A model generated the notes under the pieces. That model saw only the letters and a program-made list of their open reading frames with translations. It had not been told where the DNA came from and did no database searches. Of a stretch of DNA of 64,000 bases, positions 25,534 to 62,143 are shown in pieces (the first letter of the stretch is position 1; each line of letters begins with the position of its first letter). The stretch is from the NCBI RefSeq assembly GCF_963676685.1, contig NC_092344.1, positions 48,298,001 through 48,362,000 of the forward strand. Reading direction: 5' to 3'. Source of the stretch: Mytilus edulis (Eukaryota). The position numbers were made by a program, and so were the translations under genes.

Positions 25534-25632
25534 ACAGTCATATTCCTGACTTGGTACAGGCATTTTCAAATGTAGAAAATGGTGGATTAAACCTGGTTTT
25601 ATAGTGCTAAACCTCTCACTTTGTACGACAGT
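25534..25632 (-). ncRNA. P5-type twister-like ribozyme within a dispersed repeat (~25425-25680)
   Basis: minus strand: actgtcgta-caaa-GTGA-GAGGT-...-TTAATCCACC-attttc..gaaaat-G-CCTG-TACCAAGT-CAGG-aa-tatgactgt; P2, P3, P4, P5 and both pseudoknots can pair. Confidence 0.7.
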
Positions 25633-26943
25633 GTCATCAAATTCGGATATATTTACAATATGATGCGTGAACTAAACAGACAGAAACTCTAGCTTAAATT
25701 GTAGGAGAGTAAGAAAGATAACTCTAAACTGTATTAATTCTATTTTAGTAGATAGCTATTTAGGGCAATAATTTTTTATTTTAAACCGTGATACTTATTT
25801 CTGATGCGTCAGACCGTTACTTGACCTAATAATAGTGTAGCCAACTCTGAAAAATGTACCTGGAACGATTTATGCTGTTCTGTTTTTTATTTTCTTTTTC
25901 TTTTTTTTTTTTATTTCGTTTTGATTTTGAGGCTGCCAGAGATTATAAATAGTTAGTAACTAAAACAATTGGTATTGTTTTTGTTTAACTGTATGGTTAT
26001 TTTCAAAAATTTGAGTTTTCTCTATTTCGGTACTATAAATTATGATTCTTCTCCGTGTATTATCCATCTCTTTAGCAGATCTAATACCCCTTCCATATAT
26101 CTTTAAATTACTCATATATAGTTGAGTGGTACGTAAGTGTAATTACTGAACGTATCTATATTTCCAAACTAAATATTTTTGAGAGTTCATACTTAAGGTA
26201 ATCTATACTGCATCCTTGTCTTTCATTTGTATCATGCAACAAGGGAAAGAACCAGTCTAGAAGTGAGTTAGCAATATGGAACGGGGACCCAATTATTTGC
26301 CCCATTGGAACGCATTGAAAATCATAGTAAATACATAGGGTCCTGTTCAATAAATAATTTTGATAGCCACCTTGGGACTTCTGGTTCATGTTAGGCATTC
26401 ATTTTGAAGTGTCTAATTACAATCTCAGTGCCTCATGACCGGCATTCCGTTGCAAAATTTTGTTTTTATTGACAACAGGGTCAGTCTGTCTACTTCCGGG
26501 AAAGAATAAAGGCTAGAATTTAGGCAATTTACTCTATGTACTGACGCCAGATTACATTTAAATCAATCAAAATTTTTACAGAAATTCAAACAAGAAAGCC
26601 TACCCTTTCAAATAAATCTACATTCAGTTACAGAACTAGTGAAATAATAACACTACACAATTTATAACAAAAGTTATATATTTTTTTTAAGAACTACATT
26701 CGTGGGTACCGGACTGGTTGCCCTAACTGGGATCCTATTCCATATACGGAAGCAGCCATCTTTGATTTGCTACAAGTATTATAATACTAGGTAATCAATT
26801 TTGCGGTATTGTTCATAGTTTTGGGTGAAAAACAAATTCAATACATTCTGATATTATGAATTTGTAAATTACAAAAAACGCATTTTTTTCATGTACTAGG
26901 TGAAATCTTTAATTTTCTGTTTACTAGACTCGGTCTTTTCGTG

Positions 26944-27850: not shown

Positions 27851-28989
27851 ATTATTTTTATTTTGCCATATTTCTTTGACTTTTGGTCTTTGATTGCTTC
27901 CATGTTATTTTTCACCTCCTTTTTTTCAGACAAGGCATACCTTATATTAAGATTTGTTGCGCGTGTATTTTTTTTTTATACATAATAATTATGATGTTCA
28001 TATTATACATGTTATAGCCTATTGGCTTATTGGTGAAAGAAGTTAAAGAAATTTTTAGAAAGTCCTAATATAAAGGAAGAAAATTTTACGATTTTTATAA
28101 TTAATAGTTTCATGATTTAATATCTGATACTTCTCCCATCGCTTTTGTGTTATGTCACATAGCTATTGATGAATAATAACAGTTTTATAATGCTACAATA
28201 GTTTCATAGATAATCATAATACATTAATATTGTAGATGCAATTACCATTATTAGCTGATATTTCATTCATGCATGAATGCTGGAATAATTACTCATAATT
28301 AGTATGGAAGAACATGATCTATTCATTAGTTGTTAAAGGCTTTGAAATAGCTTCCAGTAACTGGACGAAATCGTTTTCAGCGGCCCCGTTTTCAGACACT
28401 GTGTGTCTATTGTCTTTATTTTAGTAGTTTTTAGCCAATCTGCCGAGTCGAGACTTTATGGGTCCATTCGTATTATTTTGACTATGTGATATGGACGTTT
28501 CGTATTGATGACGGCCATACATTGACCTATAATAGCTATTCATTTCTGTGTCATGTTGTTCTCTTGTGGAGAATTGTCTAATTGACAGTCATACCACATC
28601 TTCTCTTTTATCTTTTACAATTTTTTTTCTTATTTCTTGTGTTTTGTTGTTCTACCTGTGTACCAGGTTTGTAGGATAGTTAGCGCTTTCAGACATACAT
28701 GTTTAACATTGCTACATTCTATATGTGTTAATTCTAAGTTAGAAGCCTATAATGAAGTGGTTGTGGATGTTTGATAGAATGAAGGATGGAAACAGGGAAG
28801 GTGTCAAAGAGATAACTACTCAACCGAAGAGCAGAAAACAATCCAAGAGCACCAATGGGTTTCCAATGCCACCACGGATGCGGTAAGGTATTCAACTTCT
28901 CCTTTAACAATAATGTATGTTTATCATAGAAATGGACGCTGCACTTAACTCCAAGAGATAGAAATAAATCAAAATCTAAAAAAATAAGC

Positions 28990-29095
28990 AAGACTAATAG
29001 GCTAGTGGCTCCTATCTTAGGAAAGACAGACAAATGCAGCGGGGTTAAATATGTTTTGTCAGATCTCAACCCTCTCATATACATATAGCCAATGA
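28990..29095 (-). repeat. degenerate copy of the twister-bearing module
   Basis: reverse complement reads gagagggttgagatctgacaaaacatatttaaccccgctgcatt...aggagccactagcc, homologous to 54368-54458 but with P4 damaged. Confidence 0.55.
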
Positions 29096-30950: not shown

Positions 30951-31058
30951 TAACATTGCCATAAAAGCGGGAGGTTTGGCATGACACAAAACCAGGTTCA
31001 ACCCACCATTTTTTTTCTTAAAATGTCCCGTACCAAGTCAGAAAAATGGCCATTGTTA
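30951..31058 (+). ncRNA. twister-like ribozyme variant (P4 partly degenerate) in a repeat (~30800-31230) absent from duplicate B
   Basis: taacattgccat-aaaa-GCGG-GAGGT-ttggcatgacacaaaaccagg-TTCAACCCACC-...-TACCAAGT-...-atggccattgtta. Confidence 0.55.
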
Positions 31059-31542: not shown

Positions 31543-34246
31543 TACGGGGCGCCGAAAGGGACTCTTGTGGTTTTGTACAAAATTCAATTCTGTCATAACA
31601 AAATCATTTTTGTCTTACAAAACTATGTGCTACAGACTTGTTTTGTGAGAACTTTAATTTTGTGATGACAAAATTCATTTGTGTAGACAAAATTCATTTT
31701 TGTAGACAAGATTCATATTTGTCATGACAAAAGTCAATTTTGTCTAAAAGGTATGCAAATATAAACATATTTGCATACAAAATTGACTTTTGTTACCTGA
31801 TATGGAAATTAAATCACAAAAGTGAGACAAAATTGACTTTTGTGAGACAAAATTGACTTTTGTGAGACAAAATTGATTTTTGTGAGACAAAATTCAATTT
31901 TGTGAGACAAAATTCAATTTTGTCAATTTTGTTGAGACAAAAGTCAATTTTGTTAATTTTGTTGAGACAAAAGTCAATTCTGTCAATTTTGTTGAGACAA
32001 AAATCAATTTTGTTGAGACAAAAGTCAATTTTGTTAATTTTGTTGAGACAAAAGTCAATTTTGTAAATTTTGTTGAGACAAAAGTCAATTTTGTCAATTT
32101 TGTTGAGACAAAAGTCAATTTTGTGACGACAAAATTCATTTTTGTGACGACAAAATTCAATTTTGTAACAACAAAATTGACTTTTATGAGACAAAATTGA
32201 CTTTCGTGAGACAAAAATCAATTTTGTTGAGACAAAATTCAATTTTGTCAATTTTGTTGAGACAAAAGTCAATTTTGTCAATTTTGTTGAGACAAAAGTT
32301 AATTTTGTCTCACAAAAGTCAATTCTGTCAATTTTGTTGAGACAAAAGTCAATTTTGTCAATTTTGTTGAGACAAAAGTCAATTTTGTCTCACAAAAGTC
32401 AATTCTGTCAATTTTGTTGAGACAAAAGTCAATTTTGTCAATTTTGTTGAGACAAAAGTCAATTTTGTCAATTTTGTTCAGACAAAATTCAATTTTGTCA
32501 ATTTTGTTGAGACAAAATTCAATTTTGTCAATTTTGTTGAGACAAAATTCATTTTTGTCAATTTTGTGTAACAAAAGTCGATTTTGTATGCAAATTAGTT
32601 CACAGAAACCAAACTAAACTAATTTGAATACAAAATTGACTTTTGTCGCCCAATTTTCAAATTAGGTAACAAAATTCAAGTCTGTGTAACAAAAATGAAT
32701 TTTGTCATGACAAAAGTGACTTTTGTCCGCTGATAGATAATTTTGTATGACAAAATTTTAAATTTGTAGTATGATACAAATTTTGTTAAACTGAACTTAT
32801 TTTTGTTGAACAAAAGTCACTTTTGTCCGTACAAAATTGAATTTTGAGTACAAAACCACAAGAGTCCCATTCGGCGCCCCGTAATACGGGGCGCCGAAAG
32901 GGACTCTTGTGGTTTTGTACAAAATTCAATTCTGTCATAACAAAATCATTTTTGTCTTACAAAACTATGTGCTACAGACTTGTTTTGTGAGAACTTTAAT
33001 TTTGTGATGACAAAATTCATTTGTGTAGACAAAATTCATTTTTGTAGACAAGATTCATATTTGTCATGACAAAAGTCAATTTTGTCTAAAAGGTATGCAA
33101 ATATAAACATATTTGCATACAAAATTGACTTTTGTTACCTGATATGGAAATTAAATCACAAAAGTGAGACAAAATTGACTTTTGTGAGACAAAATTGACT
33201 TTTGTGAGACAAAATTGATTTTTGTGAGACAAAATTCAATTTTGTGAGACAAAATTCAATTTTGTCAATTTTGTTGAGACAAAAGTCAATTTTGTTAATT
33301 TTGTTGAGACAAAAGTCAATTCTGTCAATTTTGTTGAGACAAAAATCAATTTTGTTGAGACAAAAGTCAATTTTGTTAATTTTGTTGAGACAAAAGTCAA
33401 TTTTGTAAATTTTGTTGAGACAAAAGTCAATTTTGTCAATTTTGTTGAGACAAAAGTCAATTTTGTGACGACAAAATTCATTTTTGTGACGACAAAATTC
33501 AATTTTGTAACAACAAAATTGACTTTTATGAGACAAAATTGACTTTCGTGAGACAAAAATCAATTTTGTTGAGACAAAATTCAATTTTGTTGAGACAAAA
33601 TTCAATTTTGTCAATTTTGTTGAGACAAAAGTCAATTTTGTCAATTTTGTTGAGACAAAAGTTAATTTTGTCTCACAAAAGTCAATTCTGTCAATTTTGT
33701 TGAGACAAAAGTCAATTTTGTCAATTTTGTTGAGACAAAAGTCAATTTTGTCTCACAAAAGTCAATTCTGTCAATTTTGTTGAGACAAAAGTCAATTTTG
33801 TCAATTTTGTTGAGACAAAAGTCAATTTTGTCAATTTTGTTCAGACAAAATTCAATTTTGTCAATTTTGTTGAGACAAAATTCAATTTTGTCAATTTTGT
33901 TGAGACAAAATTCATTTTTGTCAATTTTGTGTAACAAAAGTCGATTTTGTATGCAAATTAGTTCACAGAAACCAAACTAAACTAATTTGAATACAAAATT
34001 GACTTTTGTCGCCCAATTTTCAAATTAGGTAACAAAATTCAAGTCTGTGTAACAAAAATGAATTTTGTCATGACAAAAGTGACTTTTGTCCGCTGATAGA
34101 TAATTTTGTATGACAAAATTTTAAATTTGTAGTATGATACAAATTTTGTTAAACTGAACTTATTTTTGTTGAACAAAAGTCACTTTTGTCCGTACAAAAT
34201 TGAATTTTGAGTACAAAACCACAAGAGTCCCATTCGGCGCCCCGTA
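31543..34246. mobile_element. head-to-tail dimer of a ~1.35-kb non-autonomous TIR element filled with ~21/30-bp quasi-palindromic repeats
   Basis: copies 31543-32883 and 32885-34246; 36-bp TIR tacggggcgccgaaagggactcttgtggttttgtac; ATCGC duplicated at 31538-31542 and 34247-34251; empty site in duplicate B near 42088. Confidence 0.9.
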
Positions 34247-34299
34247 ATCGCGACACAACACGTTTTTTTTTGTAATTGATTGATATAAATGTCTCAAAC

Positions 34300-35155
34300 G
34301 ATACTTAGCTGTAAGGATCTCGCTACAATGTTGTCTCGATAGGTGACAGATGTTGCTGAATACCGATGAGTCACAAGCCATAACGATATTTAAAACCATA
34401 CTTAGCTGTGAGGGTCTCGCTATAATGTTGTCTCGATATGTGACAAATGTTACTAAGTACCGATGAGTCTTAAGCCATAACGATATCTAAAACCCTAACT
34501 AGCTGTGAGGGTCTCGCTATAATGTTGTCTCGATATGTGATAAATGTTACTGACCGATGAGTCTTAAGCAATAACGATATCTTAAACCATAATTAGCTGT
34601 GAGGGTCTCACTATAATGTTGTCTCGATATGCGACAAATGTGACTGAGTACCGATTAGTCTTAAGACATAACAATATCTAAAACCCTAATTAGATGTGAG
34701 GGTCTCGCTATAGTGTTGTCTCGATATGTGACAAATGTAACTGAGTACTGATGAGTCTTAAGCCATAACGATATCTAAAACTATACTTTGCTGTGAGGAT
34801 CTCGCTATAATGTTGCCTCGATATGTGACAAATGTTACTGAGTACCGACGAGTCTTAACCCATAACGATATCTAAAACCCTAATTCGCTGTGAGGGTCTC
34901 ACTATAGTTTTGTCTCGATAGGTGACAGATGTTACTGAATACCGATGAGTCTTATGCCATAACGTTATTTAAAACCATACTTAGCTGTGAGGGTCTCGCT
35001 ATAATGTTGTCTCGATATATGACAAATGTTACTGAGTACCGATGAATCTTAAGCCATAACGATATCTAAAACCCTGATTAGCTGTAAGGGTCTTACTATA
35101 GTTTTGTCTCGATATGTGACAGATAATTCTGAGTACCGATGAGTCTGTAGCCATC
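34300..35155. repeat. 97-bp tandem repeat, 9 copies
   Basis: agctgtgagggtctcgctataatgttgtctcgatatgtgac... at 34307, 34404, 34501, 34595, 34692, 34789, 34886, 34983, 35080. Confidence 0.92.
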
Positions 35156-44138: not shown

Positions 44139-45590
44139 CTTTAATCCTTCCACAATAAAGTAATTATGAATAATCTTACAGGCAACGGAATAAACCTGGA
44201 ATTCAACTCTTTGATATTTCACAATTTGAAATTATGATTTAACATAATCAATAGAACACATTTCTGACATTGTGAAAATCAATAGAAAATTATTTTTTTT
44301 CAAATAGTTTTTAACACTTTTTAATTTTGAAAAACGAAAAAAATAGACCCAGCGTAGCATTCGCACTTACACTAATACGATATCATTAAAATATTTCAAT
44401 ACAACATCAGGCAGAAATAAGCCATCCCTCGTGTATTAAATTTATTATTTAAATTAAAGTGTTATCTTTTGAAAATGCAGTTAAAATTTATGAATGTTAA
44501 TTATTTTGAAGAAATACAGCGATACTCTATTTCAATTTGGATTTTTACTTTTCTACAGAAAAAATACTCTGTAAAATCGTTAAATTGATTTCAAAGAAGG
44601 AAAATTTAAACTGTCAAAAATTGTTGTTTGCCATTTCCTTGTACTCTGACGGTCTTCACGGAAAACTGGTTTGTCAGACCTACAAAAATTCTTACATATG
44701 AGAGGGGGTGAATAAACTCATCATAGATACCAGGATTGAAATTTTATATTCACGCCAGAAGCGCTTTTGATTATTTGATCTCTGAAGCGTGAAATATTTT
44801 ACCGGATCCAAAAAAGCAGTACATGAAAAATTGATCATGCTATTTTGTTGTCAGAAGCGTTAAATATTTATTGTGCATCTGTTGATTATTTATTTAGGAT
44901 TATTTATCAATTATGGACTTTGTACGACGTCAATTTGTTGTATATGGACCTGTTCAGATTATATCAACCGATTGCCAATGTGATCTAACAGGTCCATTAT
45001 AAAGCGTATTGACTAAGTGAAAGTCCTACATTTGAAAATGCCTGTACCAAGTCAGGAATATGACAGTTCTTGTCCATTTGTTTTTGATGCATTTTATTAT
45101 TTGATTTTGCCATGTGATTATGGACTTTCCGAATTGATTTTCCTCTAAGTTTAGCATTTTTGTGATTTTTACTTTTTATATATTACATATATAAATAATG
45201 TATTAGAAAATGGTGTTCAGTGTTTTTTCGGTGAATTTTTAAATCGTATTTTGCAATAATGTGTTAACATTAAAATATCATATTCTTTGAACAACTTTAT
45301 AGCTTGTTGCATTACTTTCTTGAATTCTTAGCGTCTGCATTTAAACTTGCAAACTTTCTTTTCGTCTGCTGCGGCGCTTCGTCCATGGTTGTTATGTTTG
45401 ACGTAATGACGTCATAAATCTTTTAGCAATATATTTTTTTTTATTTTGACCGTCAATATACATAGAAATAGAAAAAAGCGTCAATATCCCTTAAAATAGA
45501 AACGAGGCTTCGGATACGTAAAATAACCTGTGAAACATGTGATCGTCATCGCCAATGAAAACAATAGTATGCTACACCATATATGATATA

Positions 45591-47790
45591 AATTATAATT
45601 TGTATTTTGACTTTGTACAAATTGTAATTTGTACAAAAAGTGCCTGTACAAATTACAATTTGTACAAAATTTGATGAAAATTCACTTATAACTTGTACAA
45701 TATTTTATAATATATATTTTGGTGAAAAAGGCATTGATATATACACAACAGAATTTCTTATTAATGACCACACAATTCACCATATTTATCAAATACTAAA
45801 TTAATTCTGTATCTTTCGTTTGAGATGGCATCGGGAATGCAGCACAATATCTTTTGACTTTCACATTTTTAACCGGATTTTTGTGACAAAAATTCGGTTA
45901 TTGAATTGGGGATGTACGGCGGTTGGGCGGGCGGGCGGCAATCAATATATCAATATATTTTAATATGTTGTTACTGACAATAAAATGAAGGTCAAGTGCG
46001 ATAATGGCGATTTTGACTTTTACCGTTCAGGAGTTATGGTTCTTGAAAGATTGAAAAATGGAGTTTCCAGTCGTTTCCGTGCATTTACGTATGAACTGTT
46101 CTACCAAAGCTTCCCACATTTTAATGTGTTGTTACTGATGACAAAATGTAGGTCAAGTTCAATAATGATGATTTTGACTTTTACCGTTCAGGAGTTATGG
46201 TTCTTGAAAGATCGTAAAATGGCGTTTCCAGTCGTGTCCGTGCATTTACGCATGAACTGTTCTACGAAAGCTTCCCAAATTTTAATATGTTGTTACTGAT
46301 GACAAAATGGAGGTCAAGTTCAATAATGACGATTTAGACTTTTACCGTTCAGGAGTTATGGTTCTTGAAAGATTGAAAAATGGTGTTTCCAGTTGTGTCC
46401 TTGCATTTTCTCATGAACCATTCAACCAAAGCTTTTCAAATTTTAATATGTTGTTACTGATGACAAAATAGAGGTCAAGTTCAATAATGACGATTTTTAC
46501 TTTTACCGTTCAGGAGTTATGGTTCTTGAAAGATCGTAAAATGGTGTTTCCATTCACATTGTTGCATTTACTCACGAACCATTCAATCTTAGCTTTTCAA
46601 ATTTTAATATGTTGATACTTATGACAAAATGAAGGTCAAATTTGATATGACGATTTTCACTTCCACCAATCATCAGTAATGGTTCTTGTGATATTGCCAG
46701 GACACAAATAAATGTTAATAAATCCGGTTTGTTGTCGTTGTGACAGCCTCTTGTTACAATTAAAAGTACCCGCCTATGCATTTACATGAAAGAAACCCCT
46801 GACAACCTATTCTTTAAAGGCTGGTTAACTGCGATACATAGCGAAAGTTGAAGCCCGAGAACAGTTACTGTGAATAAAATGTGTCTTTCATAGCTTTAAT
46901 TTAACTATGAGACATAAATATCCTGTTCAAGTTTATACAGTTTTTCTGATTTGGTAATCAAAATCTCCAGATTCAACAATTACCCCTTAAATATATCGAG
47001 GACAGGTTTGGACACGATCATACTGAGGAATATGTATAATGACATTAACCCCAAACAACAAGTTATGATAGTTACAGTTACTGGTTGTTTTCTTGGTAAG
47101 ATATTAGTCTTGGGTCTATTGTCCACACAGTGCACACTTCCTTGCAAGAATGATTGGTGTTTCAATATCAGCATCGTTCCCAATTTAACTATGAACCCAT
47201 TATGCTTGTCCGTGGGGTACACATACTTCTTCTTTTGTCTATCATTCCATGTTAGGTTTATAATGTTTTGCACAAATTTCTCCTTGTGATCAACAATGCC
47301 ATCCATGTTTACACTATTACAGCAATTGAGTAAATGACTGAACATGTAAAAGAATGTAAAAAAAAATAAATTCTAGGATATAGAGCTTTACCAACTTATT
47401 AAAATAATTGACCCCAAAGTAGTTAGCTGTTGCAAAGTGTTTAAGAAGAGATAAATGTTTAAGTCAAATGATGCAATTTCTGATGCCAGAATTCAATCAC
47501 CTGCCCAAACGAATCATAAAGAACAATTTTATATTTTGTAAGTAAGATGTACTGTTTAGTCATTTAATACATGTACCAATGGTGTGTATCAATGCTTTTT
47601 TCATCAAAATCCATATTATGAATTATTGTACAAGTTATAAGTGAATTTTCGTCAAATATTGTACAAATTGTAATTTGTACAGGCACTTTTTGTACAAATT
47701 ACAATTTGTACAAAGTCAAAATACAAATTATAGTTTGTACAATTTTTTTGTACAAATTATAATTTGTACAAAATGATAACTTGTACACAA
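45591..47790. mobile_element. TIR DNA element with ~120-bp tgtacaaa-rich inverted ends, carrying a nested HINE
   Basis: 45591-45711 is the reverse complement of ~47625-47735. Confidence 0.75.
45866..46755 (+). mobile_element. HINE/DINE-like element carrying ~4.5 copies of a 161-bp satellite unit
   Basis: subTIR aaccggattt (45871) / aaatccggtt (46720), (gcgg)n microsatellite, 3' hairpin tgtc..gaca, units at 45970, 46131, 46292, 46453, 46614. Confidence 0.85.
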
Positions 47791-48770
47791 CATATATATA
47801 TATCCTTCCCTTTCATGAATGTGAACTACCGAATTAGACTATTTATCGGATTTTTTATAACACAAGCAACACGACGGGTGCCACATGTGGAGCAGGATCT
47901 GCTTACCCGTCCGGAGCACCTGAAGATCACCCCTAGTTTTTGGTGCGGTTCGTGTTGTTTATTCTTTAGTTTTCTGTGTTGTGTCATGTGTACTATTGTT
48001 TGTCTGTTTGTCCTTTACATTTTTGGCCATGGCGTTGTGAGTTTATTTTCGATTTGCGAGTTTGACTGTCCCTCTGGTATCTTTCGTCCCTCTTTTATAT
48101 TAACGGATTGCGAACAACTCAGGTAACTGTTTAATTTCACGTCGAACATCTGAAGTTAGAGGCATTTTGTACAATTACCATACTTAGCTGTCAACCTCTG
48201 TCTCAAATTAGAGATTTAGTTCTTTGTTGGATGATGAATTGATATGAAAAGAAAACAAAGTGGGCTTCATAAAATGTTATTCTACAGTGAATTTTTGTTT
48301 ATACCTTTACTATTTGAGTTGTTAAAGAGCAAACAAAAAGAAACTGTATTGTGCATTTTTTAGTCTGTTCTCTGATTTAAACTCAAAAAAACATTCAATT
48401 AACGGAAAGATGTTCACGTTACTGTCACCATGTACAAAAATATCAAATTACATACTATTTACACTTTTGATCATTGTTTTCGGATATTTTCCTTTGTTCC
48501 ATTGGAGTTAGGCAGGTAGAGAACCTCTCTGAGTTCTGTGTTTCCTTTTTTATTTATCTTGAAATGTTTTTAGAGAATAATAATAAAGAAGGTTTTTGCA
48601 CTATAAGTATCACGGAGGAGTCAGAAATAGACTGAAATGGTTTTTTTTAAATTGTTTGTCCTTTTATAAGCTGATGATACAGTTTGGCAGAATCTCAAAT
48701 AATGTTTTAAGGACAACTGGACTCCTTATGTGATAATTGGAAGTTATGGAAACTTACAATATTAGTTTAA

Positions 48771-49075: not shown

Positions 49076-49892
49076 TTAAGTTGGTAAGTGGAAAACCGGA
49101 CAAAATACCTTTCATTTTGTATAACTTAGCCACCCACTGCCAATTATGATGCACATATTTTATGGTTAAAACAAAGTCAAATTTATGGCACGTGTGGCTT
49201 GTCAAATGTATGAGCAACAATTTATTAGTGAACAAAATGTAGTTACATGTAACCATTAGACATTAATAGATCAGTTAAACGAAGTTGTCTAGCAAGCCTA
49301 CAGAAATCACCAAAAGCATTAAATGATCGTTTATTTAGAAATAATTTAATTTTGAGATGTAACGCGTCTTCTGATTGGCTGACGTTGTTTTGTTTATCCG
49401 CTCATAGACATAATTTTGTCATGTGAATATGACGTCATCAACGTTTTTCATGGTTTACTCCGGGAATTAAATTAAATGATAAGAAATTACTGTAATAATG
49501 TTTCTGTCTGCTACGCGCGTTATTCAGTGTGCACCACATTTTTTATGTTATTTCTTCATAGACAGAAAAAATATTACAGTCATTTCTTAAATAATTCGGA
49601 GAAATACTGTAAATGTATGTAGTTGTTTACAAAACTTAAACTTTGAATATCAACTAAACAATATGAAACTACTATTATTAAATTCTTTTTTACATACGGA
49701 TAAAGACGATAAAAGCTTTAAAGGGTAGTAGTGACAAAACTCCATTGTAATTAGATAACCTTTAAAAAGCTTTCTTGAGTGTTTCACACATGATTAGGTA
49801 TTGTGAATACGGTATTAACCGACAAATATTTAATAAACAATTTACTACGTTTCATTTCATACTGGATTTAATTTAAACGGCGAGTTGTGAAA

Positions 49893-51218
49893 ATGTTTTC
49901 GTATTTGTGCTCTATCATTATACTATTATCATTTGTACTTAATGCAAATGCTGATGAACAAAAAGAAGATGAATCGAAAAAAGAGGAATACAAACCTATA
50001 CAGGAACTTATAAAAAATGTGACAAATGGAAGAAATAAAGAGGTCAGACCTGTCAACAATTGGGACGAACCTGTTATAATTTACTTTTATTTTCATATGA
50101 CTTATATTCAGGAATTCGACGAAGTTGCCGGAAAATTAAGTTTAAACGGATATTTTGGAGTTCAGTGGAGAGACAATACTGTATCATGGGATCCTAGCGA
50201 ATATGGCGCTTCTTCCTTTACATTCAATGAAGAATTATTTTGGAAACCAACCTTTATAATGTCAAATCCATATGGAGAACAAAAAATATTATATAAAGAT
50301 GATAGTGTAAAGAGGGTGCATTACACTGGACAAATTGATTGGTTTCCAAGCGATGCATTCGATATTTCATGTCAGGCTGATGTTACAGATTATCCATTCG
50401 ATACACAAACATGTACTATAGCATTTGTTTTATCGGCATATGACGAAAAAGAGGTAATTTTATGGCCAACAGCTTTTATAACTGAGTGGTTTGTCCCACA
50501 TAAAACATGGGATTTGATTGAGACGAATCTGACTAGAATTGCTTCTCCACAGGTGGCAAATTTTCATATCAAACTGAAGAGAAAGCCTATGTTTTTTGTT
50601 TTCAACCTAATACTGCCAATAGTTCTTATGTGTATTCTTAACCCTTTTGTCTTTCTACTACCAGCAGATTCAGGTGAACGGGTTGGATTTTCCATAACAG
50701 TATTATTGGCCATTGCAGTATTTCTGACGATTTCTGCCTCTGGTCTTCCGGCAATCTCAGATCCACAAATACCAACATTATCTATTCTTTTATTTGCTGA
50801 CGTCACTTTTAGTGGCGTAATTGTTATACTAGTCATTATAAGTTTACGTTATTATCTGCGTGATGAAAATATTCCAGTTTCATATCTTGGAGAAAAATTT
50901 GTGACGATTTGTCGTGTACTAAAATGCGGTTGCTGCTGCAGGAAAGGGACGAAAGGTAAAGGTGACGAGTATGGAAACAAACATGAAAACAATGATAGTG
51001 TGGATATCAGTAAAATAAAACTTTTTGGATCGGAGTACCAGTATCGAGGAACTAATAGTGAGGAAATCAACTCTTTTACCTCCAAAGATGAAATTACATG
51101 GAAGAATGTCGGAGAAGAACTTGACTTTGTTTTTGGCACTTTAAGTGCTGTTTATATGGTAACAGCACATTTATTGTATATTCTTGGAATTGTACTAGAT
51201 TTTCCTTTATTTTCATAA
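49893..51218 (+). CDS. intronless divergent nAChR-like Cys-loop subunit (441 aa from ATG 49893)
   Basis: signal peptide, VRPV, WKPTF, Cys-loop CQADVTDYPFDTQTC, PADSGERVG, four TMs, CGCCC cluster in the M3-M4 loop. Confidence 0.92.
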   Translation: MFSYLCSIIILLSFVLNANADEQKEDESKKEEYKPIQELIKNVTNGRNKEVRPVNNWDEPVIIYFYFHMTYIQEFDEVAGKLSLNGYFGVQWRDNTVSWDPSEYGASSFTFNEELFWKPTFIMSNPYGEQKILYKDDSVKRVHYTGQIDWFPSDAFDISCQADVTDYPFDTQTCTIAFVLSAYDEKEVILWPTAFITEWFVPHKTWDLIETNLTRIASPQVANFHIKLKRKPMFFVFNLILPIVLMCILNPFVFLLPADSGERVGFSITVLLAIAVFLTISASGLPAISDPQIPTLSILLFADVTFSGVIVILVIISLRYYLRDENIPVSYLGEKFVTICRVLKCGCCCRKGTKGKGDEYGNKHENNDSVDISKIKLFGSEYQYRGTNSEEINSFTSKDEITWKNVGEELDFVFGTLSAVYMVTAHLLYILGIVLDFPLFS

Positions 51219-52105
51219 TTTGTTTATAACTAATAAATAGATAGATTAGTTATATCTGTCGGAATAGTCTACTCTTTAAGTAGGCTAGTTTACCTATCAT
51301 AATAATGACTTCACAGTTTAGCTAACAAGCAAGCTTACCAAAGATTCTACCTTTCCCTACACACTGAAAGAAATCGGCTGTAACAGAAATCGGCAGGTTT
51401 TTACTTTGTACACATCAGTTATGAAATTTAGTAAATTACTAAATAAAGAATGTCTATGCAATGCTAGCAATGAGTTACATTAACGACGATTTTAAAAATA
51501 GAAATTTATTAAAAAGAAATACAAACATGGACATATTTCAATACACTTTCGAGGGTGCGCTCAGCCATGGTGACTCATCACAAGGATTTTTATTCGGAAT
51601 TGTAATCTAAGATAGTTTAGCCGATTTTGAAGACAATTACCAGATGCATATCATAGAAATACTACAAAAGGACTGATTTGAAAATGTTAAATGTTAGAAT
51701 TTCCTTTTCTCTGTAATAAATACTTTAAGTCTGTAGGTTTTCCTGTGTATGTCTAGGCTTGATTTTTCAACACAAAACAATTATTCGTAGAAAAACAAAC
51801 AAATCAAAGTCGACAGAATCAAACAAACAAACAAGCAACTTTCATCAAACAGAACACTACTCAGAAATATAAAATCGGGCTCAACACAAACCCTGCCAGT
51901 CACTCAGGTTGAACCTTGCTTGATTTTCTTGAAGGGTATTCCGTGTTTGATCCACTTGTCTGATTTTATGAATTGTCGTGGGTGTCAGTATTCACCCCAG
52001 AAACTTACAAAACCTTTGAATAGACTTATTAAGAAGGGATATAATTACGGTACTGTTGTCAAGTCATTAAAGATTGCATATTTTGGCGTTAATATTGAGT
52101 CACTG

Positions 52106-52109
<4 letters not shown>

Positions 52110-52139
<30 letters not shown>

Positions 52140-54031
52140 AAATTTATAAAGCGCCCTATATAAAAAATAAAAAAGACGCTGTACATACACATGGTAATTA
52201 AAACATATCAATGACAATAACATAAAACATAAAAAAATACATCGTGTCAGATTCAAATACTGAAACAAAAAATGCCTACCATGAAATAAAAGGTCAATAC
52301 GAAATACATGTTAAAACAAAGAATAAAAAAAATAACAATATAGGATAAAAGCATGCAGAACAAGCAAAAACTCAATACAAAGAGTAAAAAAGCCCGTAAA
52401 AGAGAAATCAATCTAATTAAAAGCAATACGATAACAATGAGTTTTTAACTGTATTTTAAAACACTCTAGGGACTTGCATTGTCTTAAACTGTTCGGGAGA
52501 TTGTTCCATAGAGATGCCGCTACCCAATCAAATTGTCTTTCACCGTACGTCTTCGTTCTCACTTTTGGAACGGTGAGTAGTTTTGTGAAACTTGAACGCA
52601 AAGATCGGTTTGGCACGTGTAGATGGACTAGTTCCCGGAAGTAAGCAGGGCCAATGTCATTCAAAGCGCAGTACACACAAGTCAGTATTTTGTATTGTGG
52701 TCTATATTGGACGGGTAACCAATGTAAATCAGCAAGTATCGGTGTAATATGTTCATGTTTCCTTGTCCTGGTGATAAGACGAGCTGCTGTATTTTGTACT
52801 TTTTGTAATCTGTTCAATGTAGTCTTGTTGATACCGTTCAGCAGAATATTCCCATAATCAGTCTGGATGTTACTAGACTGTTCACAAGTGTTTTGCAAGC
52901 AGTTGTTGTTATGAAGTTGCGAATGCGTCCAATATTACGGATGTGAAAATGACAGGATGTTACTATGGCAGAAACTTGCCGTTCCATCGTTAGGTGTTGA
53001 TCAAAATATACACCTAGGTTTTTCACGCAGGATACACTACTTATAACAGTATTGCCGACTTTGAGTTGGAGATTTGGTACACTAGCCTTCAGATGTTTCG
53101 GTGTGAATATGATAAGTTCGGTTTTATCTTGATTCAGTTTTAACATATTTTTTGACATCCATGAACTAATGTCGGAAAGACATAGTTCAAGTTTCGAAAA
53201 ATAGTTTTCCCAGTTGTCTAGTGGCTTGATAACCATGTAAACTTGTGTGTCGTCCGCATAGCAGTGATATGTCATGCCATGGCGACGGCATATTTCACCT
53301 ATTGGCTTAGAGAAAAGACAGTACAATTTAGGGCCAAGCACGGAACCTTGTGGAACACCGAATGTTAGATGACATTTCTTCGATGTAGTTGTTCCAATCA
53401 CCACACGCTGATGTCTATTCGTCAAATACGATTTATGCCATATGAAAATGACAGACGTTCTAGAAGAATTCTGTGATCTATAACATCGAATGCAGCGGAA
53501 AGGTCCAATAGCACCAATACTACTGATGACTGTTTATCTAAAGCTGCATTGATATCATGATGTACTCTCGCTAATGCAGTTTCAGTTGAATGGCGTGGTC
53601 TGTATGCTGACTGAAGTGGATCACACAATGAGTTCGAGTCCAAATGAACATCTAGTCTCTTATCAACTACCTTTTCTAGAGTTTTCGAAATAAAGGGTAA
53701 ATTGGACACTGGTCTGTAATTTTTGTAAATTTCGGAATCAAGTCCAGGTTTTTTCAGAAGAGGTCTCACAAGAGCCTGTTTAAAGTCTGTCGGCACGATG
53801 TTCTCATCAAATGATGCATTGACGATTTCTGAAATAAGTGGCACGACAACATCGGAACACTGTTTCAAGAGGTTCGACGGAATAGGATCAAGCTCGCAGG
53901 ACTTATTCGGAGCTTTTTGAATGATAGTTCGTATCTCATCATTGGTTGTGTGTTTGAATGACAACAAAGGTGTACCAGTGAATTCAACATCAGCCTGTAG
54001 AAATGCAATGTTATCACCATTCACTACGTTT
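52110..54031 (-). mobile_element. 5'-truncated, frameshifted L2-clade LINE (reverse transcriptase)
   Basis: NYRPVSNL, LDLSAAFD, GVPQGSVLGP, YADD, HITPIL..LHWLP; gcgctttataaa + (TTA)n tail; TGATAA TSD at 52104-52109 and 54032-54037. Confidence 0.93.
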
Positions 54032-54367
54032 TGATAAGGTCTTTGCATCGGAACTAAACACATTTATTCTAAAAACAGTTGTTGGCATGACACGGGTTAT
54101 GTTCTTCTCATATGTTATGATGCTATGATACTAATCCCCTAACGGAAAGAATTGTGCCTGATGTTCATATGATGAAATCATAATCTTTCAGTCAGTTTAA
54201 TTGAAGTCTGGAGCTGGCATGTCAGTTAACTGCTAGTAGTCTGTTGTTATTTATGTATTATTGTCATTTTCTTTATTTTCTTTGGTTACATCTTCTGACA
54301 TCAGACTCGGATTTCTCTTGAACTGAATTTTAATGTGCGTATTGTTATGCGTTTACTTTACTACATT

Positions 54368-54458
54368 GGTTAGAGGTATAGGGGGAGGGTTGAGATCTCA
54401 CAAACATGTTTAACCCCGCCGCATTTTTGCGCCTGTCCCAAGTCAGGAGCCTCTGGCC
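54368..54458 (+). ncRNA. P5-type twister-like ribozyme (best-preserved copy)
   Basis: P5 ggttagaggt/gcctctggcc; P2 GGGG/CCCC; GA-GGG pairs with CCC in L4; T|AA at 54411/54412; P3 gca-tttt-tgc; P4 CCTG/CAGG; L4 TCCCAAGT. Confidence 0.75.
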
Positions 54459-55468
54459 TTTGTTAGTCTTGTATTATTTTAATTTTAGTTTCTTGTGTAC
54501 AATTTGGAAATTAGTATGGCGTTCCTTATCACTGGACTAGTATATATTTGTTTAGGGGCCAGCTGAAGGACGCCTCCGGGTGCGGGAATTTCTCGCTACA
54601 TTGAAGATCTGTTGGTGACCCTCTGCTGTTGTTTTTTATTTGGTCGGGTTGTTGTCTCTTTGACACATTCCCCATTTCCATTCTCAATTTTACTTCAAAA
54701 GGAAAATATAAAAATCTTATTCAGTGACATCAAACAAGACAAAAGAAGGAGTTGTTAATTTTTTTTTATAGTGTTGGACAAAGAGAAACAATCAAGCAAT
54801 CAATTACTTGTACTAATCAACATTCGTTTTATACATACGGATAATTATGTCTGTACCAAGTCATGATTATGACAGTTGTGTTTCATTCGTTTGATGTGAT
54901 TAAGCTTTTGATTTTACCATTCAATAAAGGACTTTCCTTTTCGGATGTTTTTGGAGTTCGGTTATTATGCAATTTTACTTTGATCTTATCTGTAACAAAA
55001 ACTGTTTGGAAAAGATTAATTCACATGTGTGGACAATTGATCGGAGACTCTACACACTGGAAAGACGGAAGGTGGATTTAATCAAACGAAATTTATGCAG
55101 TACATTAATCGTCAGATATTCATGTCACTATGAAATTTATCTTTCAGTTCGATGCAAAAGGTGAGGCAAGAATCAAAGATTTGAACTAAGAATAATTATT
55201 ATGCAAAAGTTCCGTAAACATGAATTTCTAACTCTTTCGGGTTTAAATATAAAAAAGAATATGTGGTATGATTGCCAATGAGACAACTCTCCACAAGAGA
55301 CCAAATACATAGAAATTAACAACTATTACAGGTGACGAGGAAACCCATACCGCATACTTGGCTATAAAAGGTGTTACTTTTTTTAATTTGTTACGTGTAA
55401 CATTGGAATGAGATGTTGAGATGGGGACAAGTCAATAAAAGATTGTTTTAATTCAAGACAATTTCTTG

Positions 55469-61729: not shown

Positions 61730-62143
61730 CTTATGGTGAAGTTGAAATCATCCCTTCGTAAATTTTACGGACGCCATCACGAGTTGGTTGACCGTTATGG
61801 AATAACCGTTTCACAAATGATATCGGATATGTTCCTTACGTCGTAACTACAATCCCCTTTCATGAATATGACCTACCGAATTAGACTATTTACCGGATTT
61901 GTAATCACTTAAGCAACACGACGGGTGCCACATGTGGAGCAGGATCTGCTTACCCTTCCGGAGCACCTGAGATCACCCCTAGTTTTTGGTGGGGTTCGTG
62001 TTGTTTATTCTTTAGTTTTCCATGTTGTGTCGTGTGTACTATTGTTTTTCTGTTTGTCTTTTTTATTTTTAGCCATGGCGTTGTCAGTTTGTTTTAGATT
62101 TATGAGTTTGACTGTCCCTTTGGTATCTTTCGTCCCTCTTTTA
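61730..62143 (+). mobile_element. 3' fragment of a retroelement (possibly Penelope-like RT C-terminus plus structured 3' region)
   Basis: MVKLKSSLRKFYGRHHELVDRYGITVSQMISDMF resembles the C-terminal helix of PLE-type RTs; class is inferred. Confidence 0.55.

Follow-up and report, generated by a model that had tools for sequence, protein, structure and literature searches.

A type-P5 twister fold with two palindromic arms in the 3' pseudo-LTR of Naiad retrotransposons from mussels and clams

In the genome of the mussel Mytilus edulis, a stretch of DNA of 64,000 nucleotides (assembly GCF_963676685.1, contig NC_092344.1, positions 48,298,001 to 48,362,000 of the forward strand), referred to here as the window, contains a sequence resembling a twister ribozyme in which two palindromes are located between loop L1 and the predicted cleavage site. 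This raises the questions of which fold is present at this locus, in which kind of element it resides, and why symmetry should be kept directly beside a cut site. The original prediction, made from the letters of the window, was that the P1 stem of the ribozyme is replaced by the palindromes and that P1 may form between two molecules or two tandem units. The features identified in the window are collected in Table 1. Published work is cited by PMC number.

Table 1. Positions of the twister-like fold, its host element and related copies, counted from the first letter of the window
Feature	Position	Strand	Basis or remark
Type-P5 circularly permuted twister-like ribozyme fold, family A	54368..54458	+	folding; partial Rfam twister-P1 match
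P5 5' strand, forming 10 pairs to 54449-54458, where the permuted fold is open	54368..54377	+	folding
P2 3' strand GGGG, partner CCCC at 54414-54417	54381..54384	+	folding
L1 GAGGG, with predicted general-base G 54385 and T1 partners	54385..54389	+	identical to S. mansoni twister L1
Palindrome 1 (TGAGATCTCA), specific to the family, with a self-duplex predicted at -14 kcal/mol	54391..54400	+	duplex energy, alignment
Linker between the palindromes	54401..54402	+	54401: 13 C and 15 T in 29 copies
Palindrome 2, AACATGTT, ending one base 5' of the cut triplet, predicted self-duplex -6.4 kcal/mol	54403..54410	+	
UAA, predicted cut 54411/54412	54411..54413	+	homology to twister
P2 5' strand CCCC and T2 partners GC	54414..54419	+	
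P3 hairpin, polymorphic loop position 54424	54420..54431	+	
P4 (CCTG/CAGG) and L4 TCCCAAGT	54432..54447	+	
P5 3' strand	54449..54458	+	folding
3' part (ORF end, 3' UTR/pseudo-LTR) of a 5'-truncated Naiad copy, 3' end fixed at 54692	54032..54692	+	
Remnant of the RT C-terminal coding region, upstream part of this Naiad copy	51981..52109	+	
Unrelated decayed RT-bearing non-LTR insertion with (ATA)n tail, splitting the Naiad copy	52110..54031	-	
Family B1 copy in which TAGCGCTA has decayed to TAGCACTA, then AACCAGGTT	25535..25633	-	approximate ends
Family B3 copy in which TGGCATGCCA has decayed to TGGCATGACA	30955..31056	+	approximate ends
Decayed family A copy	28963..29094	-	
Heavily decayed copy with TAGCGCT	28670..28745	+	approximate ends
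5'-truncated B-type copy, P3 to P5 only	45026..45070	+	
Second, non-twister RNA motif	47875..47920	+	
Second, non-twister RNA motif	61922..61967	+	

For the window copy, the elements inside P5 follow in the order GGGG, GAGGG, insert, UAA, CCCC, GC, P3 and P4 with the loop UCCCAAGU. A single T at 54390 separates GAGGG from palindrome 1, which is followed by a C at 54401, and a T/C variant at 54370 preserves its P5 pair. The numbering and the catalytic roles of single bases were taken over from the twister literature, with G54385 presumably serving as general base, and the predicted catalytic letters are intact. In comparison to the S. mansoni twister (Table 1 of PMC8501958), identity was found for the 3' letters of L1 (5 of 5), for UAA (3 of 3) and for L4 (8 of 9). 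At the gathering level Rfam gave no hit in the window, and the partial twister-P1 match obtained in a relaxed search scored 13.3 bits compared to a gathering value of 67.2; the Rfam twister-P5 model gave no match to the ribozyme at E-values up to 10. When the copies were sorted, 85 of 117 unique ones were assigned to six families (A, C and B1 to B4), with 26 unassigned and 6 truncated. P5 is the closing stem in families A, B1, B2, B3 and B4 and differs in sequence between A and B; in family C a closing stem forms as well, in a less clear register. P2 consists of three pairs and a bulge in the mussel B families.

The core was also found to covary. For T1, CCC/GGG in some families stands against ACC/GGT in others, and for T2, GC/GT and AC/GT were identified, together with CC/GG in published clam Naiads. 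In the latter, P2 (GCAC/GTGC, GCTC/GAGT) and P4 (ACCG/CGGT) covary as judged by eye. At the outer pair of T1, Mphi, Scon and Mmer have U-U, and A-G occurs in some of the B1 copies. The conserved L1 (N-AA and GAGGN) and L4, the stems P2 and P4 and the pseudoknots T1 and T2 characterize the fold as a twister, and from mussel to clam families the predicted catalytic G, N-AA, L4 and the two pseudoknots are retained, with covariation in the stems. An ordinary P1 stem, which belongs to the conserved twister consensus, does not form, the cis duplex between the halves of the insert being predicted at -0.3 kcal/mol in family A and at -1.1 to -3.3 kcal/mol in four other families. The paired fraction of the whole structure was equalled in none of 500 shuffles of a 10-row alignment, a kind of control which is inflated by related sequences.

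The element carrying the fold is a Penelope-like retrotransposon of the Naiad type, and the ribozyme fold is located in its 3' pseudo-LTR. In the genome of 1.37 Gb, a 21-base core has 16,225 exact matches and the pattern of the whole ribozyme has 24,200, with none for the reversed control. A full unit was identified at locus L061, where a GIY-YIG remnant, a KR block, CxC, GPKY, DKA and the RT were recognized by eye, and where a partial tandem places two cores at a distance of 3,968 bases. The assignment to Naiads is given by GIY-YIG upstream of the RT, by CxC and DKA, and by a unit of 3.4-4.4 kb with 5' truncation and a partial-tandem pseudo-LTR; Pfam gave no significant hit for the Naiad protein. 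The copies share a fixed 3' end and have variable, 5'-truncated starts. By eye, family B2 matches the 3' end of the published Naiad_Mgal. Linkage to the RT was seen directly for families A and B3, and by eye for family C. The two pieces of the Naiad copy in the window (51981-52109 and 54032-54692) are about 97% identical to the full element of L061, with a value of 97.3% for 54032-54692, and the non-LTR insertion between them is flanked by a 6-base duplication, TGATAA (52104-52109 and 54032-54037). In family A, the ribozyme site is located about 280 bases inside the Naiad 3' end.

Several further properties of these elements and of the window were observed. The family A reading frame (L061:4247-5900) contains four in-frame TGA codons at Cys-like positions, the same selenoprotein type as already described from clams and spiders. 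In the 3' UTR (window 54096-54185), a long hairpin may represent a SECIS element. Ribozyme cores at G000:C1:6233548, 6238297 and 6243047 are about 4,750 bases apart, and copies of a second motif, described below, are 3,370 bases apart at L175-L177; such spacing may indicate full head-to-tail Naiad arrays. About 110 bases upstream of the family C twister (L001, L019, L027, L029), the sequence CTGATGAG represents the first half of a hammerhead core, for which no GAAA partner was seen nearby. Similar hammerhead "half cores" were marked in other Naiads by Craig et al. (PMC8557442). Elsewhere in the window, a single, apparently intronless frame of 448 codons (49872-51218, plus strand) codes for a subunit of a Cys-loop ligand-gated ion channel (Pfam Neur_chan_LBD and Neur_chan_memb). 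Tandem arrays with units of 20-30, 97 and 161 bases are present at 31576-33950, 34292-35154 and 45957-46688, and the block at 31576-33950 appears to be duplicated about 1,340 bases apart.

The two adjacent palindromes which had been reported in place of P1, between GAGGG and UAA, are present in the window copy as TGAGATCTCA at 54391-54400 and AAACATGTTT at 54402-54411. The second of them is located as claimed, but its final T is the U of the UAA triplet, and the conserved part is the 8-mer AACATGTT. Near-palindromes had also been named in other copies. Two of these, TAGCACTA at 25609-25602 on the minus strand and TGGCATGACA at 30977-30986 on the plus strand, each followed by AACCAGGTT, were recovered and represent decayed forms of the perfect palindromes TAGCGCTA and TGGCATGCCA. 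The third, TAGCGCT at 28681, is weak evidence in contrast; it lies in a heavily decayed copy with an unrecognizable core.

For the six families of this genome, palindrome 1 was identified as TGAGATCTCA (A), TGGGATCCCG (C), TAGCGCTA (B1), TAGCTAGCTA (B2), TGGCATGCCA (B3) and TGGCTAGCCA (B4). Palindromes were also read by eye in four published consensus sequences, namely TGGCGCCG with AATC-T-GATT in Bathymodiolus, TGATGCATCA with AACC-T-GGTT in Modiolus, TGGAGCGCTCCA with AAACC-A-GGTTT in Sinonovacula and GGTGCGCACC with AAACCGGTTT in Mercenaria, in each case as part of a twister fold that is complete and has covarying P2, P4 and P5 stems of its own. Ten distinct sequences of palindrome 1 are thus present in ten families, six from this genome and four published, and all are symmetric to the centre, where five kinds of tetramers (GATC, GCGC, CTAG, CATG and TGCA) are found, each symmetric in itself. 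The palindromes are 8 to 12 bases long, and palindrome 2 has odd and even forms. The statement that symmetry and not sequence is conserved was therefore borne out by ten different first palindromes and by two-sided changes to their innermost pair, and the proposed comparison across genomic copies and subfamilies gave symmetry in 10 of 10 families.

In a 10-row alignment, 95.3% of the cells of the palindrome-1 mirror pairs are paired, and four of the five pairs have changed on both sides, including the innermost one; the alignment includes L003, a row with a wrong address, and L170, in which the core is deleted. Palindrome 2 was outside this count, since its odd and even forms share no columns, and has the compensatory forms AACC-A-GGTT, AATC-T-GATT, AACCGGTT and AACATGTT. 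The register of both palindromes is fixed in 10 of 10 families, with palindrome 2 ending at the base preceding N-AA, the position at which P1 would stop, and palindrome 1 beginning 0-2 bases past GAGGK. Among 29 copies of family A, a minor allele shared by at least three copies was found in 0 of 18 palindrome columns versus 53 of 322 flank columns, a comparison limited by the selection of many copies through their core and by a similar lack of variation in other stems. When the insert of the window copy was shuffled, 85 of 20,000 sequences reached its two-palindrome score; the same test gave 60, 94, 44 and 20 of 20,000 for four other families, values which do not multiply because the families are related. 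The search pattern for family B4 allowed 64 versions of the palindrome, 8 of them palindromic. Among the 100 matches listed, 71 are perfect palindromes by hand count (67 of the B4 form, three TGAGCGCTCA and one TGAGTACTCA), and 10 carry one common palindrome-breaking change.

A subfamily of family A in which both palindromes are broken was considered as a counter-example and proved to be a passenger, as 11 of 11 fetched copies share both flanks; at L124 and L142-L151, a dead family A copy has spread to at least 11 loci inside another repeat. The search for new families with another P4 gave 13 matches, all of which are mutated copies of known families, and the search for compensatory palindrome-2 families gave 242 matches, which among the 100 listed are mostly point mutants. 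As a separate observation, YAA often follows palindrome 1 (54401-54403) and resembles the cut triplet after palindrome 2 (54411-54413), hinting that the insert may have arisen by duplication of a palindrome-YAA unit.

What the symmetry implies follows from its centre. The loop of a hairpin would vary freely, and the symmetric centre of the palindromes therefore points to pairing between two strands. At the ends of the palindromes, families C and Bpla have U-G wobbles, which are symmetric on the ribozyme strand only, so that the palindromes fit the RNA of this strand and not duplex DNA. With high probability, the palindromes pair like with like between two RNA copies. For palindrome 1, the predicted self-duplex of -12 to -19 kcal/mol exceeds every cross-family duplex in 6 of 6 families, and palindrome 2 is weak (-6.4 to -6.8 kcal/mol) and common to the families. 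As in the retroelement ribozymes of the Penelope hammerhead type which likely cleave as dimers, a self-complementary segment conserved in its symmetry is present at the helix adjoining the cut site. The proposal that P1 forms between two molecules or two tandem units is the best reading of these data as far as intermolecular pairing is concerned, but each palindrome is expected to pair with its own twin, which would result in two helices and not in one P1.

In the mechanism proposed here, palindrome 1 would pair with its twin and act as a family-specific partner code, and the pairing of palindrome 2 with its own twin would place a helix directly against the cut site, the two helices being separated by linkers of 1-3 bases. 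As partner, either another RNA molecule or, within a partial tandem, the second pseudo-LTR could serve. Pairing would draw the arms off a monomer misfold which hides the T1 guanines or the cut triplet, and tandem Naiad transcripts would be cut into unit-length RNAs. Because insertions read through the site, the cut unit would be re-ligated or the template left uncut. If both arms were bound to one partner with closed cores, the loops would interlock, and this reasoning favours a strand swap, sequential helices or different partners for the two arms. A requirement for a dimer would, as a speculation, spare host transcripts that contain a single solo copy, tens of thousands of which exist. For the misfold, two-dimensional ensembles of the monomer, calculated without pseudoknots and without a canonical twister as control, have the T1 partner bases paired off in 6 of 6 families. 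Masking of the palindromes, in ensembles with the same two limits, freed the T1 partners clearly in 2 of 6 families (B1 and B2) and partly in A and B4; family C freed only the cut-site A, and B3 changed little.

Different parts of this reading are held with different strength. We give equal weight to the proposal being right or wrong that the fold is a P5 twister with palindromic arms in which the pairing of twins switches on or strongly stimulates cleavage, and by which tandem transcripts are cut into units. The chances are similarly balanced for the narrower statement, reasoned from the sequence, that dimer formation would stimulate cleavage. Cleavage strictly as an obligate dimer, which had been raised as a possibility, appears rather unlikely by the same reasoning.

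Among the alternatives, the one which survives best holds that the monomer cuts without P1 and that the palindromes are an RNA dimerization signal, used for the pairing of templates or of the 3' ends freed after cleavage. Palindromes are known in this role from retroviral dimer initiation, where they pair two templates in one particle. We regard this alternative as possible, though well short of an even chance. Twisters devoid of P1 were reported to cleave at a near wild-type rate (PMC5408937), and P1 defects were without effect in a large survey (PMC11662667), so that the absence of P1 does not by itself force a dimer. Naiad insertions often have an adjacent inverted second copy (PMC8557442), which fits two templates, and the family specificity of palindrome 1 likewise speaks for such a signal. 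However, such a signal need not keep register, whereas the register to N-AA and GAGGK is kept in all ten families, and a freely active monomer should halt reverse transcription at the site unless it is re-ligated, whereas truncations there are rare.

A further point in favour of a dimerization signal is that other Naiads have, at the corresponding place, an unrelated fold which likewise contains two covarying palindromes. This second motif (Table 1, and additionally L172-L201) has 8,176 matches in this genome. It has a closing stem, and its covarying palindromes, CCACATGTGG or CCGTATACGG and TCCGGA, flank a small pseudoknotted hairpin. It is located about 160-310 bases past the ends of Naiad-type RTs, in the 3' UTR. 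In the Naiads of oyster, ark shell and pearl oyster, it is present at the place of the twister, which is absent there, and it recurs in Naiads of Clytia, hemichordates and fish. In PMC8557442's own consensus sequences of 11 bivalve Naiad families, the twister fold is present in five and the second motif in five, and one (Mcor) ends upstream of the site. A twister is nearby in 2 of 30 loci with the second motif and, in the one inspected, is part of a neighbouring insertion. Rfam gave no hits for the second motif at E-values up to 10, and by eye it did not fit the hammerhead, HDV, pistol, hatchet or twister-sister patterns. The second motif is a candidate for a new ribozyme or a dimer signal. 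Two unrelated folds built on the same two-palindrome plan show that Naiad RNA needs this plan, catalytic or otherwise. It appears doubtful that Naiads in general use a two-palindrome dimer switch, which in mussels and clams would be an obligate-dimer twister joined by two intermolecular helices, with palindrome 1 as family identity code, and in oysters, cnidarians, hemichordates and fish a new class of self-cleaving fold.

A fold which no longer cleaves in vivo would be a structural signal, for example for binding of the Naiad RT, with the palindromes as dimer interface. This is considered improbable, and the evidence bearing on it comes from RNA reads and from insertions. In 9,087 RNA reads of one raw data set, no pile-up of read ends was found anywhere and no drop of depth at the site, as expected for a silent fold. 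However, 67% of the reads continue into unlike sequence, so that they mostly represent read-through of solo copies in a fragmented library and are a weak test of cleavage. The step in read depth across the site, from 485 to 668 in one mate direction and from 772 to 821 in the other, was rejected as a sign of cleavage, since comparable steps occur elsewhere (516 to 707). Insertions beginning at the site are not in excess either, with 20 matches at the cut site, comprising 12 true truncations and 8 internal changes, versus 67 unchecked matches at a control position. As insertions do not start preferentially at the cut, the template is uncut or re-ligated, which fits a dimer-gated ribozyme, a circular template and a silent fold equally well. 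The silent fold is opposed by the catalytic G, N-AA, pseudoknots and L4 kept from mussel to clam, as described above, while the stems covary.

Two other explanations are very improbable. If each palindrome formed a mini-hairpin of 2-4 base pairs, as part of a cis junction replacing P1, three-pair hairpins could be drawn in families B3 (-1.1 kcal/mol) and C (-0.8 kcal/mol), but the would-be loops are symmetric in every family, two-sided changes reach the innermost pair, and no structure is predicted for the isolated insert in 3 of the 5 families analysed, including family A of the window. A reading of the symmetry as DNA, either as the site of a protein dimer or as an integration cruciform, could draw on the palindromes being symmetric on both strands and on the GIY-YIG nuclease encoded by the element, but is opposed by ten different sequences, by lengths ranging between 8 and 12, by a palindrome 2 which can be odd or even, by U-G ends symmetric on the ribozyme strand only, and by a site which, in family A, lies inside the element and away from its junction.

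The palindrome-armed twister fold of Naiads gains its importance mainly from its location in the pseudo-LTR. Naiads were reported to be without the canonical hammerheads of other Penelope-like pseudo-LTRs, and as a Penelope-like clade which thrives without this ribozyme (PMC8557442), they have in the twister a candidate replacement at the same place. A second ribozyme class has thereby arrived at palindromic arms, after the hammerheads of Penelope elements. The role of pseudo-LTR ribozymes can be tested directly on RNAs about 90 bases in length. The copies, at least 24,200 in number, form a very large ribozyme-like family which was missed by Rfam, and the second fold in Naiads spans animal phyla. 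If the dimer reading is true, this would be a naturally occurring twister gated by dimer formation and equipped with its own partner code, and a ready part for concentration-gated RNA switches.

The twister class itself is known, and its type-P5 permutation has been described (PMC5408937, PMC6765202); what is new is that a P5 twister fold resides in the pseudo-LTRs of Naiads and has a pair of palindromic arms. In the accessible open-access literature, no Naiad twister and no palindromic dimer twister was found, and the words "twister" and "palindrom" do not occur in the main text of PMC8557442. With the published Naiads, the elements described here share the N-terminal GIY-YIG, the KR block, CxC, DKA and 5' truncation, and also partial tandems, a unit of 3.97 kb and in-frame UGA at Cys positions (PMC8557442). 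With the described type-P5 twisters, the fold shares the element order, the open P5, GAGGG, N-AA, P2, P3, P4, L4, T1 and T2, and their covariation, but these have a P1 hairpin where the Naiad fold has two covarying palindromes.

Among retrotransposon ribozymes, active T-variant twisters were shown for Perere-3 of Schistosoma (PMC8501958), and truncated twisters at the 5' ends of RTE elements were announced as "in preparation" (PMC7761336). Like the Naiad fold, they have a weak or missing P1 and reside in a retrotransposon. However, the T-variant twisters, which are of type P1, and the RTE twisters occupy the 5' end of the element and free it from upstream RNA, whereas the Naiad twister is of type P5, lies within the 3' pseudo-LTR and carries palindromes that are conserved. 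The closest parallel in layout is found in the minimal type-I hammerheads of Penelope elements, which are likewise pseudo-LTR ribozymes with the stem by the cut site reduced to a palindrome. Their stem III loops are palindromic and cleavage likely occurs as a dimer (PMC6765202), for which the tandem layout is helpful (PMC6765202, PMC7761336). They belong to another ribozyme class and have one palindrome where the Naiad twister has two, and for this reason a simple strand-swapped single helix does not describe the Naiad twister.
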